Positions 21,128 through 22,073 of a stretch of 64,000 nt of DNA are shown piece by piece. The stretch covers positions 92,403 to 156,402 of the forward strand of contig JBAZUL010000001.1 of assembly GCA_041661405.1 (NCBI GenBank), in the 5' to 3' direction. The notes beneath the pieces were generated by a model, which was not told where the DNA came from, ran no database searches, and saw only the letters and a program-made list of their open reading frames with translations. The position numbers were made by a program, and so were the translations under genes. Every line of letters starts with the position of its first letter. Within the stretch, counting starts at the first letter, position 1. This DNA is from Patescibacteria group bacterium. Lineage in GTDB: Bacteria > Patescibacteriota > Patescibacteriia > Patescibacteriales > JBAZCA01.

Positions 21128-21151
21128 TTATGTCCAGAGAACTGTGGACAT
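21128..21151. repeat. Palindrome family copy 1 (TTATGTCCAGAG-AA-CTGTGGACAT)
   Basis: Read directly. It is part of a 27-nt exact direct repeat, 21125-21151 = 21181-21207. Confidence 0.9.
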
Positions 21152-21183
21152 TGCGCTTGTGGATAACTTTTTGTAAAAATGCG

Positions 21184-21209
21184 TTATGTCCAGAGAACTG
21201 TGGACATAA
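21184..21209. repeat. Palindrome family copy 2 (TTATGTCCAGAG-AA-CTGTGGACATAA)
   Basis: Read directly. It is centred in a larger inverted repeat, 21158-21180 / 21217-21239, whose tips are DnaA boxes. Confidence 0.9.
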
Positions 21210-21317
21210 CTCCGATAAAAATTTACAAAGTTATCCACAGCAATTATTGTCCATATTGCCATATAATCGCCATTATAATGCTAAAATTAGCTACCATATA
21301 TTATAACATAAAAAGAG

Positions 21318-21343
21318 CTATGTCCACAAAACTCTAGACATAA
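21318..21343. repeat. Palindrome family copy 3, degenerate (CTATGTCCACAA-AA-CTCTAGACATAA)
   Basis: Read directly. Confidence 0.75.
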
Positions 21344-21549
21344 CTCCCTTATTGAACATCTCAATTTTTCCTCTGTGGATAACCTGTGAATCAAAATTTA
21401 TTCACAGTCGTTTATGAAAAAACGACTGCCCATAAACCTGTATCGGGTGCTTACTTGTAAGAGCGTATCCTTGACTAGATATGAGTAAAATAAATAACTC
21501 AAAATTGTGTTCACATCACCTAGCTCCTGGTAATACGAGGAGTGTACAG

Positions 21550-21567
21550 TGGGCTTAGTGGGACTCG
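21550..21567 (-). repeat. Duplicated 3'-end fragment of tRNA-Ala (att-like direct repeat)
   Basis: tgggcttagtgggactcg matches the tRNA-Ala 3' end tggacttagtgggactcg (21627-21644) at 17 of 18 positions. No complementary T-stem or 5' half accompanies it. Confidence 0.7.
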
Positions 21568-21626
21568 GCCGGCAAACGCCGGGCGGGAAGCGGATGCTCA
21601 CCGAATCTGATTAAGCAAATTATGTG

Positions 21627-21700
21627 TGGACTTAGTGGGACTCGAACCCACGACCTCTTGCATGCCATGCAAGCGCTCTAGCCAACTGAGCTATAAGCCC
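21627..21700 (-). tRNA. tRNA-Ala (anticodon GGC)
   Basis: Reverse complement GGGCTTATAGCTCAGTTGGCTAGAGCGCTTGCATGGCATGCAAGAGGTCGTGGGTTCGAGTCCCACTAAGTCCA. It carries the G3:U70 identity pair and the anticodon loop ATGGCAT. Confidence 0.9.
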
Positions 21701-21732
21701 GTGTATAGTCTTTCAATCTATTTCCAATTTTA

Positions 21733-21881
21733 ATAAAGGGAAATCTGTTTCGTTTTTGAAGCGAGGACATGTATCTCGCTGAGGATACATAATTAGTTTA
21801 CTCAGACTAACCGTACAGATGCCTAAATTAATGGCAGGTGTAGATTTCCGGAGCAAAAAAACGAAACAAATTTCCCTTTAT
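21733..21881 (-). other. About 150-nt element closed by a 25-bp inverted repeat (candidate structured ncRNA or MITE-like element)
   Basis: Arms at 21733-21757 and 21857-21881. The single non-Watson-Crick position is C-A on the plus strand but G-U on the minus strand. Internal hairpins are gcgag/ctcgc and tgcc/ggca. Confidence 0.4.
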
Positions 21882-22047
21882 CTTAACACCTTATCCACAG
21901 CTTAATCAAAACTTAATTAATATTGAATAATTCGCTAATATTAGCAAATATTACTGGGTGATGTTTTATCTTTATCCTTGACTTTCTCTACTTATCTCCA
22001 GTTTATCCACAACTTAATCAGACTTTACTTTTTTCTTGATTTTGGAC

Positions 22048-22073
22048 TTATGTCCAGAGAACTCTGGACATAA
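22048..22073. repeat. Palindrome family copy 4, perfect (TTATGTCCAGAG-AA-CTCTGGACATAA)
   Basis: Read directly; 12-bp arms with a 2-nt centre. Confidence 0.9.

Follow-up and report, generated by a model that had tools for sequence, protein, structure and literature searches.

We found that a 26-base palindrome, TTATGTCCASAR-WW-YTSTGGACATAA (PAL), is real and conserved in related genomes: it occurs six times in the 64-kb stretch of DNA analyzed here (the window), part of a Patescibacteria chromosome around dnaA, is constrained in its sequence and not in its structure, stands at a fixed distance from DnaA boxes or from a -10-like element, is present in low copy number, and lies in two clusters that flank the predicted replication origin. 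We read it as the predicted site of a dedicated dimeric protein that would act with or against DnaA, an interpretation to which we assign a probability of roughly 40%.

Six palindrome copies in two clusters

All six copies reported in a preliminary description of this DNA are present where it had placed them (coordinates are unstranded). Four form the first cluster, namely PAL1 (21128-21153; TTATGTCCAGAG AA CTGTGGACATTG, with one CCAGA arm and one CCACA arm), PAL2 (21184-21209; TTATGTCCAGAG AA CTGTGGACATAA), PAL3 (21318-21343; CTATGTCCACAA AA CTCTAGACATAA) and PAL4 (22048-22073; TTATGTCCAGAG AA CTCTGGACATAA), and two form the second, PAL5 (51995-52020; TTATGTCCAGAG TT CTCTGGACATAA) and PAL6 (52060-52085; TTATGTCCAGAG TT TTGTGGACATTG). 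As had been described, PAL4 and PAL5 are perfect 12-2-12 palindromes with centers AA and TT, respectively, the other four copies carry one to four mismatches, chiefly CTCTGG to CTGTGG, and a 27-nt stretch is repeated exactly in direct orientation (21125-21151 = 21181-21207). Every copy has a 9-4-9 layout, and no unpaired half-site was found in the clusters. PAL is above chance, with zero copies expected: a search allowing up to three mismatches returned four copies vs. 0.00 in 100 dinucleotide-preserving shuffles. Successive copies are unevenly spaced (gaps of 30, 108 and 704 bp in the first cluster and of 39 bp in the second), the units are palindromic and cas genes are absent from the window, all in agreement with the earlier view that this is not a CRISPR array.

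Fixed spacing to DnaA boxes and -10-like elements

Perfect DnaA boxes (TTATCCACA) number seven in the window, where ~0.5 would be expected by chance over its whole length, and five of the seven lie within 40 bp of a PAL copy. The short non-coding stretch 21158-22091 holds five perfect boxes and one 8/9 box, as a datA-like cluster would. On the minus strand, perfect boxes (TGTGGATAA on the plus strand) lie 4 bp beyond PAL1 (21158-21166) and 30 bp right of PAL3 (21374-21382, kept in the relatives L003 and L012); on the plus strand, they lie 21 bp right of PAL2 (21231-21239), within the conserved block CTTATCCACAGCTTAATCAAAACTTAAT (21891-21899), in a TTTATCCACAACTTAATCAG block 36 bp left of PAL4 (22003-22011), and at 52030-52038, with a gap of exactly 9 bp to PAL5 and of 21 bp to PAL6. 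The 8/9 box TTTTCCACA (22083-22091, plus strand) sits, TTAT end toward the palindrome, at a distance of exactly 9 bp from PAL4, and relatives have TTATCCACA there; another 8/9 box-like sequence, TTATCCGCA (52128-52136, plus strand), is found in the AT-rich stretch between PAL6 and tRNA-Cys. An extended -10-like element, TGTTATAAT, occurs exactly 9 bp from PAL3 (21300-21308, minus strand) and exactly 9 bp from PAL6 (52095-52103, plus strand), pointing away from the palindrome in each case, and the 12-mer ATGTTATAATAT at this element is invariant in seven instances across genomes.

We refer to palindrome-N9-TTATCCACA, as at PAL4 and PAL5, as module A, and to palindrome-N9-TGnTATAAT, as at PAL6, as module B. 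The 9-bp gap of module A, always with the TTAT end proximal, recurs in 10 occurrences from three orthology groups whose spacer sequences differ, and that of module B recurs in seven. We rejected the idea that module B drives transcription of a gene or sRNA, as all instances aim at the 3' end of a convergent gene or run antisense to a tRNA; the sequence downstream is unconserved, and no product could be assigned. The claimed confinement of PAL to tRNA/DnaA-box regions holds throughout the window: each of the six is found 3' of a tRNA gene on the minus strand, with PAL1-PAL3 in the 3' flank of tRNA-Ala(GGC) (21626-21700), PAL4 in that of tRNA-Arg(CCT) (22131-22203, 58 nt from the gene), and PAL6 and PAL5 in that of tRNA-Cys(GCA) (52170-52243).

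The clusters flank the predicted unwinding site

The dnaA-dnaN spacer carries a probable oriC unwinding module (27270-27332, plus strand) to which published DnaA-box/trio motif rules were applied (PMC8287927, PMC8235120): the DnaA box TTGTCCACA (27270-27278) is followed by a GCCC spacer, the trios TTA TTA TTA TTA CTA (27283-27297) and an AT-rich stretch. This arrangement of box, GC spacer and TTA trios is kept in the dnaA-dnaN spacer of all relatives, and 27270-27330 is likely the unwinding site. The cumulative GC-skew minimum of the window, at 27.5 kb, coincides with the same spacer, as it does in L025-L027; in L019 and L021, local minima fall at the PAL/tRNA-Arg region, so that GC skew alone cannot separate 27.3 kb from the PAL region. 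With the unwinding module in the dnaA-dnaN spacer, the PAL clusters flank the origin, at -5 kb and +25 kb, and are distinct from the predicted unwinding element. The 21.1-22.1 kb region was considered as oriC and dropped, given that the conserved module sits in the dnaA-dnaN spacer instead, and a DnaA-trio module beside PAL was rejected because the arm adjoining the AT-rich stretch is wrongly oriented for the box-then-trio rule.

Conservation and distribution

When three genomes were compared, 93% of PAL columns were invariant, vs. 34% of other intergenic columns and 76% of those in DnaA boxes; PAL1 is invariant in L003 and L012, inner positions excepted. Both clusters are syntenic in relatives down to ~65% DnaA identity (64-69% at the lowest), where the surrounding intergenic DNA has diverged: L019, L021, L023 and L025-L027 at locus 1, and L015, L028 and L029 at locus 2, have a syntenic PAL in flanks that no longer align.

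Scans of 185,579 species genomes and 241 million metagenome records yielded just one or two PAL loci per related genome or contig, with a single locus on one 168-kb contig. PAL is therefore no dispersed repeat, which bears out the earlier opinion that it is not a generic REP/MITE element; neither scatter at high copy nor absence from relatives, which the preliminary description had named as findings that would count against its proposal, was encountered. Other scan matches were set aside as chance or unrelated sequence (L004, from Desulforhopalus, and L014; L011, L017 and L018, of high GC; L005, L007 and L009, of 29% GC and almost ORF-free) or as unrelated ordinary terminators (L010 and L016).

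Sequence constraint and terminator-like copies

The suggested weighing of covariation against strict conservation pointed to constraint at the sequence level. In PAL, whose core A-W-G-T-C-Y-A-S-A is read as sequence, positions 5-7 and 9 are unvaried in 38 copies, although these share descent and duplication and the counts overstate their independence. The pairs of the supposed stem are often broken; among 34 distinct copies, 10:17 is unpaired in 17 and 12:15 in 13. That inner stem positions are unpaired in about half of the copies argues against a pure hairpin, and the terminator pattern of pairing kept with sequence left free is not seen, the core bases being invariant. A dimeric DNA-binding protein, as first proposed, is the best-supported reading of this pattern.

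It has also to be considered that PAL may be mainly an RNA hairpin, either an intrinsic terminator or a processing signal of the tRNA 3' trailer, with an incidental link to DnaA boxes; we judge this unlikely. Every window copy is indeed located 3' of a tRNA gene, on the strand that is transcribed, and folding of the tRNA-sense strand predicts stable stem-loops for five of the six (-13 to -20 kcal/mol, z of -3 to -5.6), but the fold of PAL6 is no more stable than that of shuffled sequence (z = -1.05). The assertion that no copy is followed by a T-run stood for the plus strand and failed for the minus (tRNA-sense) strand, on which PAL2 is followed by GCATTTTTAC and PAL3 by TTTTTATG and both were flagged as terminator-like; the other four window copies (PAL1, PAL4, PAL5 and PAL6) have no T-run on either strand. 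PAL3 in particular has, on the minus strand, a 16-bp stem followed by UUUUUAUG, so that it probably terminates the tRNA-Ala transcript as well. Among the relatives, the copy that comes first after tRNA-Leu or tRNA-Cys carries a 3-8 bp stem extension of variable sequence and a T-run (L019 at 7999, L021 at 8349, L028 at 5065 and L029 at 5142), and the mean stem extension is 1.55 bp vs. ~0.33 bp expected, whereas module-A copies are not extended. With extended stems and T-runs at these four sites and at PAL2 and PAL3, the blanket statement that the palindromes are not terminators went too far, and some copies may double as terminators of upstream tRNA genes. Nevertheless, the core is invariant across clades with no co-variation, and a hairpin would explain neither why 3-4 copies stand in tandem nor the distance of exactly 9 bp from DnaA boxes. 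An Rfam search with E values up to 1 returned tRNAs only and otherwise no known RNA family.

Candidate readers of the palindrome

The characterization of each half-site as a DnaA box with an inserted G/T applies to the window's clade only, as the outer TTAT is GAAT, TTAA or TAAA in relatives. A better alignment matches the 9-mer ATGTCCACA with TTGTCCACA, the DnaA box in the unwinding module of the window itself, to which the half-site is identical at 8/9 positions with TGTCCACAG as the common stretch; together with a topology like that of DARS boxes I/II, this means that DnaA itself could be the reader. The arms do not fit the R-box consensus TTWTNCACA (PMC4585315), from which CCACA arms differ by two mismatches and CCAGA arms by three. 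Positions 1, 3 and 5 of the 9-mer are strict (A, G and C) and positions 2, 6 and 8 permissive (W, Y and S), an information profile that is the opposite of that of the DnaA R-box. With E. coli DnaA as the reference, the contact motifs of DnaA domain IV are identical across all clades. Half-sites occur in the variants ATGTCCA, AAGTCCA and AAGTCTA. The idea that T or A at half-site position 4 cleanly distinguishes the clades was weakened by L028, which has both forms, so that co-evolution of half-site and binder is not demonstrated.

A close rival reading, which we consider somewhat less likely, is that the arms of PAL are two DnaA boxes placed head-to-head and occupied by DnaA itself, like those at the core of E. 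coli DARS1/DARS2; the stronger arm (CCACA) or the canonical box 9 bp off would then recruit a second DnaA to the weaker arm, and both clusters would be DnaA-regulating loci, for reactivation or titration, flanking oriC. The DARS1 core, TTATCCACT-N5-TGTGGATAA-N3-TGTGTATTA (read from NC_000913.3; PMC6868365), and PAL, which can be written ATGTCCASA-N4-TSTGGACAT, share a topology in which the CACA ends face each other, and the 4-bp gap of PAL likewise matches the ~5 bp of a DARS head-to-head pair. PAL1 and the box at 21158 (arm-4-arm-6-box) give the I-II-III order of the DARS1 core, and in PAL1 and its orthologues this third box is oriented like box II at a gap of 6-7 bp; the third box of module A, however, has the opposite orientation and lies 11 bp from the arm, an order of right-left-right that is unlike DARS. 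The CCACA arm equals the unwinding-module box over TGTCCACAG, a purine follows PAL arms and canonical boxes alike, each genome has two loci around oriC at which canonical boxes are always present, palindromes with two CCAGA arms mostly have a canonical box at N9, and the search for a dedicated regulator came up empty. In the most distant clade, moreover, every arm has CACA, and PAL overlaps a TTATCCAC box rather than lying 9 bp away from one. Against a reading by DnaA, CAGA replaces CACA in 21 of the 38 half-sites of the window's clade (55%), which puts G at a position for which DnaA needs C; canonical letters, T at position 1 or A/T at position 3, occur in 0 of 76 arms, which leaves no intermediates between the two classes of box; and DnaA boxes are not known elsewhere with one rigid spacing and 3-4 tandem units per locus.

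The few, strictly conserved palindromic copies near the origin, on both sides of it, might also suggest a centromere-like or SMC-loading site of a putative segregation protein, replacing or supplementing parS, an idea to which we give little credence. The 64-kb origin window has neither a canonical parS nor parAB genes (no ParB gene is encoded within it), a bactofilin gene always adjoins locus 1, smc is near locus 2, and L023 has PAL-like units only 8 bp away from one canonical parS (TGTTCCGCGTGGAACA, position 7105), a further parS being located at 7366. The presence of both elements in L023 nonetheless means that PAL is not simply a parS replacement; a close tie, at 9 bp, to DnaA boxes and a -10 element is no property of parS, and PAL has no similarity to its sequence (TGTTNCACGTGNAACA), the best parS match in the window having 2-3 mismatches and being located elsewhere. 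We regard it as very improbable that PAL serves recombination or attachment, or that it was left behind by a mobile element inserted at tRNA genes. The 9-8-9 core geometry is akin to the core sites of tyrosine recombinases, PAL lies 3' of tRNA genes, and the window has a 100-bp insertion with a partial copy of the tRNA-Ala 3' end (21520-21620), but L003 and L012 have PAL without this partial copy, all relatives have their copies at these same loci, flanked by conserved genes, and no integrase or transposase was found in the window or the related loci (12 for integrase). A recombinase site, the other option originally raised for the 12-2-12 geometry, is likewise disfavored, because each locus has several copies and the window encodes no recombinase. 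Searches of plasmid and phage collections returned zero PAL matches, and an origin from such elements was discarded for want of similarity, the single viral-contig match being an unrelated high-GC chance sequence.

A proposed dedicated dimeric binder

We return to a dedicated dimeric protein, and infer that such a protein binds PAL, that it is not DnaA, and that it has an effect on initiation. PAL would be a dyad-symmetric protein site acting at the DNA level and a fixed part of two origin-flanking DnaA-box clusters in Falkowbacteria-related Patescibacteria; its reader would be a putative homodimeric sequence-specific protein whose half-site, A-W-G-T-C-Y-A-S-A, is a close derivative of the DnaA box. 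Bound 9 bp away from the high-affinity DnaA box of module A or from the extended -10 element of module B, this protein could control DnaA occupancy and local transcription at the clusters, either by competing at the box-like arms or by stabilizing DnaA on the neighboring box, in a manner reminiscent of IHF/Fis action on datA and DARS2 or of oriC regulators of the Spo0A/CtrA type. Some copies have in addition gained stem extensions and T-runs, and would thereby also terminate upstream tRNA genes. More ambitiously, and with considerable doubt, we can picture PAL as the site of a new Patescibacteria origin-associated dimer that mimics inverted DnaA boxes and docks 9 bp from DnaA or RNA polymerase, providing a lineage-specific switch for initiation (or origin organization) where SeqA, Hda, YabA, Spo0A and CtrA are absent.

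No unexplained HTH gene adjoins either locus in the window. The local TrmB-, YerC- and Rrf2-like regulators, offered earlier as possible binders, do not have PAL in their own promoters, and the YerC/TrpR-like protein, whose own promoter has a different palindrome (TTAACGT-N6-ACGTTAA), is without support as a binder; its fold class is shared with DnaA domain IV. A YerC/TrpR-like gene is found close to locus 1 in three genomes, and two further genomes have one close to locus 2. The HTH_17 gene by the L006 cluster was rejected because it has no homologue in the window, and so were orf172, orf193 and orf105, which adjoin the loci, as none bears a DNA-binding signature and orf193 appears to be secreted. 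ArsR/SmtB-type operators have a 12-2-12 inverted repeat, a geometry similar to that of PAL; no ArsR-family gene lies beside either window locus. HTH_5 genes occur in L025-L027, where they are paired with SdpI, 6 kb away.

Implications and comparison with known systems

Almost nothing is known of how chromosome replication is controlled in the uncultivated, ultra-small Patescibacteria, and our literature search found no paper on their replication origins. For one lineage, we can now offer a map in which a textbook DnaA-box/trio unwinding module between dnaA and dnaN is accompanied, around it, by two conserved DnaA-box clusters where PAL stands at a fixed distance from DnaA boxes and a promoter-like element. 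Should a dedicated protein read PAL, it would be a new regulator of replication or origin organization; should DnaA read it, a DARS-like head-to-head DnaA assembly would exist far outside Proteobacteria, which would suggest an ancient DARS-like mode of DnaA control.

Neisseria DUS pairs and REP elements are protein-recognized palindromes that double as terminators. Like PAL, they are sequence-conserved inverted repeats 3' of genes with T-runs in some copies; they are, however, dispersed in hundreds to thousands of copies, whereas PAL has about two loci per genome and occurs only with DnaA boxes. The parS sites of ParB share with PAL their small number, strict conservation, palindromic form and proximity to the origin, yet they are 16 bp long, unrelated in sequence and uncoupled from DnaA boxes. 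Second sequence-specific proteins at DnaA-box regions include Spo0A (at 0A-boxes), CtrA, MtrA, AdpA and HP1021, and Spo0A sites both resemble and overlap DnaA boxes. Unlike PAL, the sites of these proteins lie within oriC, and they do not take the form of a 26-bp perfect dyad at a constant 9-bp offset. Origin-binding regulators are reviewed in PMC4285127.

The DnaA-box clusters of B. subtilis (PMC3245932) and E. coli datA (PMC4585315) resemble the PAL loci in that high-affinity boxes lie in intergenic DNA near, yet outside, the unwinding site, and differ in having no repeated strict palindrome. An accessory DNA-binding protein site is required by datA and DARS2, that of datA being for IHF (PMC4585315); such IHF and Fis sites are asymmetric or degenerate and not box-like, in contrast to PAL. 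PAL differs from E. coli DARS1/DARS2 in its non-consensus class of arm, A-W-G-T-C-Y-A-S-A, about half of them CAGA, in its 2-4 units per locus and in the box order of module A. With DARS1/DARS2 it shares inverted 9-mers whose CACA ends face each other across a 4-5 bp gap, further DnaA boxes adjoining, and a placement in non-coding DNA at two chromosomal loci outside oriC (PMC6868365).

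Copies, census and conservation of the palindrome

We found all six copies of the 26-bp palindrome (PAL, 12-2-12) that the preliminary description had placed at 21128, 21184, 21318, 22048, 51995 and 52060 (PAL1 to PAL6), and its two perfect palindromes (22048, centre AA; 51995, centre TT) and exact 27-nt repeat (21125-21151 = 21181-21207) were likewise recovered. With up to three mismatches, TTATGTCCAGAG-NN-CTCTGGACATAA occurs four times in the window versus 0.00 in 100 dinucleotide-preserving shuffles; the more diverged copies at 21318 and 52060 (four mismatches each) emerged in a relaxed scan. 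Each window copy is in the 3' flank of a tRNA gene on the minus strand (Ala-GGC, Arg-CCT or Cys-GCA), and of the window's seven perfect TTATCCACA DnaA boxes, five are no more than 40 bp from a copy.

When 185,579 species genomes were scanned for the exact pattern, the matches were one relative, the Patescibacteria MAG L003, and one sequence matching by chance. A looser pattern retrieved 13 stretches from 241 million metagenome records, six of them from relatives and the remainder unrelated; the relatives' stretches include the locus-1 region (PAL1-4; L008, L012, L013), the locus-2 region (PAL5-6; L015) and a third context (L006). The single match among viral contigs (L018) was an unrelated high-GC sequence, and nothing matched in the plasmid and phage collections. 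More distant relatives were obtained via homologues of the DAGK-like and DksA-like proteins, and all of them carry palindromes built the same way in corresponding places, either following tRNA-Leu or trx and preceding tRNA-Arg (L019, L021, L025-27) or following tRNA-Cys (L028, L029). Invariant columns in a three-genome alignment made up 93% of PAL, 76% of DnaA boxes and 34% of other intergenic DNA. From this conservation and the scans it follows that PAL is a low-copy, lineage-specific motif kept by purifying selection; neither high-copy scatter nor absence from relatives, the two outcomes that had been named as counting against the family, was seen in the scans and syntenic relatives. The palindrome finding is thus genuine and conserved, and PAL is a low-copy element in DnaA-box clusters flanking the origin of one Patescibacteria lineage.

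Confinement to tRNA/DnaA-box regions was true of all six window copies, but not of those in L006, which have no tRNA nearby, so the motif is not strictly tied to tRNA genes. This third kind of locus (L006 3275-3450; three copies, with a DnaA box at a 9-bp offset) lies where a small HTH_17 (excisionase-like) gene and an ECF sigma factor gene diverge.

The PAL clusters and the origin

Locus 1 reads tRNA-Leu, YerC-like, radical SAM, orf172, PAL1-3, tRNA-Ala, DnaA boxes, PAL4, tRNA-Arg, bactofilin, DAGK-like, yidC, rnpA, (rpmH), dnaA (25758-27101) and dnaN, with rpmH called only in L002, a contig near-identical to the window. Cluster 2 lies between tRNA-Cys and a dksA-like/lspA/rbfA operon, with smc close by. 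Cumulative GC skew reaches its lowest point at 27.5 kb, within a broad minimum spanning 17-31 kb.

The dnaA-dnaN spacer holds, at 27270-27332, the DnaA box TTGTCCACA, a GCCC spacer, TTA TTA TTA TTA CTA trios and then AT-rich DNA, which matches the box/spacer/DnaA-trio arrangement of the bacterial basal unwinding system, where lower-strand 3'-GAT-5' equals upper-strand 5'-CTA-3' (PMC8287927, PMC8235120). The same layout of box (mostly TTATCAACA), GC spacer, TTA/CTA trios and AT-rich tract was found in 7/7 related genomes examined, and such spacers include those of L019, L021, L023 and L025-27; this module is the probable site of oriC unwinding in the lineage. Three tandem near-consensus boxes at 25583-25611 (TTATCCACT, CTATCCACA, TTATCAACA), directly upstream of a promoter-like TATAAT before dnaA and kept in L019 and L021, probably mediate dnaA autoregulation. 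With boxes upstream of dnaA and the module in the spacer, the classical bipartite origin is intact, and both palindrome regions are DnaA-box clusters separate from this probable unwinding site, one ~5 kb left and the other ~25 kb right of the origin.

Other elements accompany the clusters. A different conserved palindrome, GCTAA(A/T)ATTAGC, forms a second family that is found at 21284-21297 and 21925-21936 in the window and, in L003, L012, L019, L021, L023 and L025-27, between tRNA-Ala and tRNA-Arg; it is present in every clade, even those that have lost the DnaA boxes separating these tRNAs. The window carries, relative to L003 and L012, a ~100-bp insertion (21520-21620) directly 3' of tRNA-Ala, which holds a partial tRNA-Ala 3'-half copy (GTGGGCTTAGTGGGACTCGG...) and may be an integration scar or a degenerate tRNA. 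The DNA separating cluster 2 from the dksA-like gene includes ~355 nt of conserved, structured non-coding sequence (51500-51856, minus strand; counterparts L015 4285-4660, L028 5385-5775, L029 5478-5845), which has its own promoter-like site (TTGACT-17-TGnTATAAT, 51891..51863), a terminator (GGGCCCGTCTGGGCCC plus T-run, 51519..51504) and, across four sequences, 90 predicted pairs, seven with compensatory changes; it had no Rfam match at E up to 1 and is a candidate new ncRNA.

Constraint on the half-sites and fixed 9-bp modules

Pooling 38 copies (76 half-sites), we found a core of A-W-G-T-C-Y-A-S-A, a 9-mer that is present in every case as two inverted units 4 bp apart. Within the 9-mer, G-T-C and the position-7 A are invariant; at position 2 the window's clade has T and the others mostly A (L028 has both); and the outer bases vary by clade (TTAT, GAAT/CAAT, TTAA, TAAA). 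In a hairpin model, pair 10:17 (palindrome numbering) is unpaired in 17/34 distinct copies and pair 12:15 in 13/34, and the sole well-supported covariation is 4:23 (UA 21, AU 10). The proposed comparison of covariation with sequence conservation thus favours sequence, these pairs being often broken and the core invariant; what is constrained is a dyad-symmetric sequence, which is the mark of a dimeric DNA-binding protein rather than an RNA stem.

Two arrangements recur at a fixed distance. In module A (n=10, in three orthology groups: PAL4, PAL5 and L006), PAL is followed after exactly 9 bp by a DnaA box with its TTAT end toward the palindrome, across spacers unlike in sequence (AAACCCGAC, AATCATGAG, CTCCCTCAT and others). 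In module B (n=7), exactly 9 bp separate PAL from TGTTATAAT directed away from it, the 12-mer ATGTTATAATAT being invariant; read as a promoter, it would place the palindrome at -50 to -25, and every instance would direct transcription into a convergent gene's 3' end or antisense to tRNA-Cys, with downstream DNA not conserved.

That no copy is followed by a T-run was correct for module-A copies, which also lack a stem extension, but not on the tRNA sense strand of PAL3 (a 16-bp stem, then UUUUUAUG) and PAL2 (followed by GCAUUUUUAC). The relatives' first copy after tRNA-Leu or tRNA-Cys has T-runs and a stem lengthened by 3-8 bp whose sequence varies, with predicted folds of -28 (L019 7999) and -33 kcal/mol (L029 5142). 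Some copies thus seem to double as terminators; since module-A copies are plain and shuffled sequence folds as well as PAL6, termination cannot be the family's defining function.

Candidate readers of the palindrome

On balance we tentatively favour (probability roughly 0.4) a dedicated dimeric protein as the reader of PAL over a DARS-like pair of DnaA molecules, which we rate as a close but somewhat less likely rival. The CCACA arm agrees at 8/9 positions with TTGTCCACA, the window's own unwinding-module box (TGTCCACAG is common to both), but CAGA occurs in 21/38 arms of the window's clade, and 0 arms in any clade have drifted to the canonical form despite adjoining canonical boxes. In topology the inverted pair matches E. 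coli DARS boxes I/II (PMC6868365), and the I-II-III order is imitated by PAL1 together with the 21158 box (the DARS1 core in NC_000913.3 is TTATCCACT-N5-TGTGGATAA-N3-TGTGTATTA). However, PAL is strict at positions 1, 3 and 5, where the R-box consensus TTWTNCACA (PMC4585315) is permissive or different, and permissive at positions 2, 6 and 8, where DnaA is strict, while the DNA-contact motifs of DnaA are identical across clades.

The dyad-symmetric constraint agrees with the dimeric protein of the preliminary description, but its alternative, a recombinase site, found no such gene: no ParB, recombinase or orphan HTH gene stands beside the PAL loci in the window. A YerC/TrpR-like gene lies near one or other PAL locus in five genomes, adjoining locus 1 in the window (18931-19278), L003 and L012, and standing beside the locus-2 operon, after a DHH/nrnA-like gene, in L028 (8954-9298) and L029 (8724-9065), and has moved between the two neighbourhoods. 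The suggestion that this regulator binds PAL found no support, as its own promoter carries a different, conserved palindrome (TTAACGT-N6-ACGTTAA).

We also rejected PAL as parS: searches of the window and other related loci found canonical parS only in L023 (a Parcubacteria genome; 7105-7120 TGTTCCGCGTGGAACA, 7366-7381 TGTTCCACGTGGAACA) and, at the same sites, L024, where it stands beside a PAL-like pair. The first parS of L023 is 8 bp from this pair of PAL-like units and DnaA-box-like sequences. The PAL neighbourhood is an origin-proximal hub.

Comparison with known systems

Our literature search found nothing on Patescibacteria replication origins. As a type of element PAL is familiar, being either a site for an accessory protein or a specialised site of DnaA assembly within a DnaA-box cluster. 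Not described elsewhere are the PAL sequence, the rigid 9-4-9 layout and the constant 9-bp distance from DnaA boxes and from a -10-like element.
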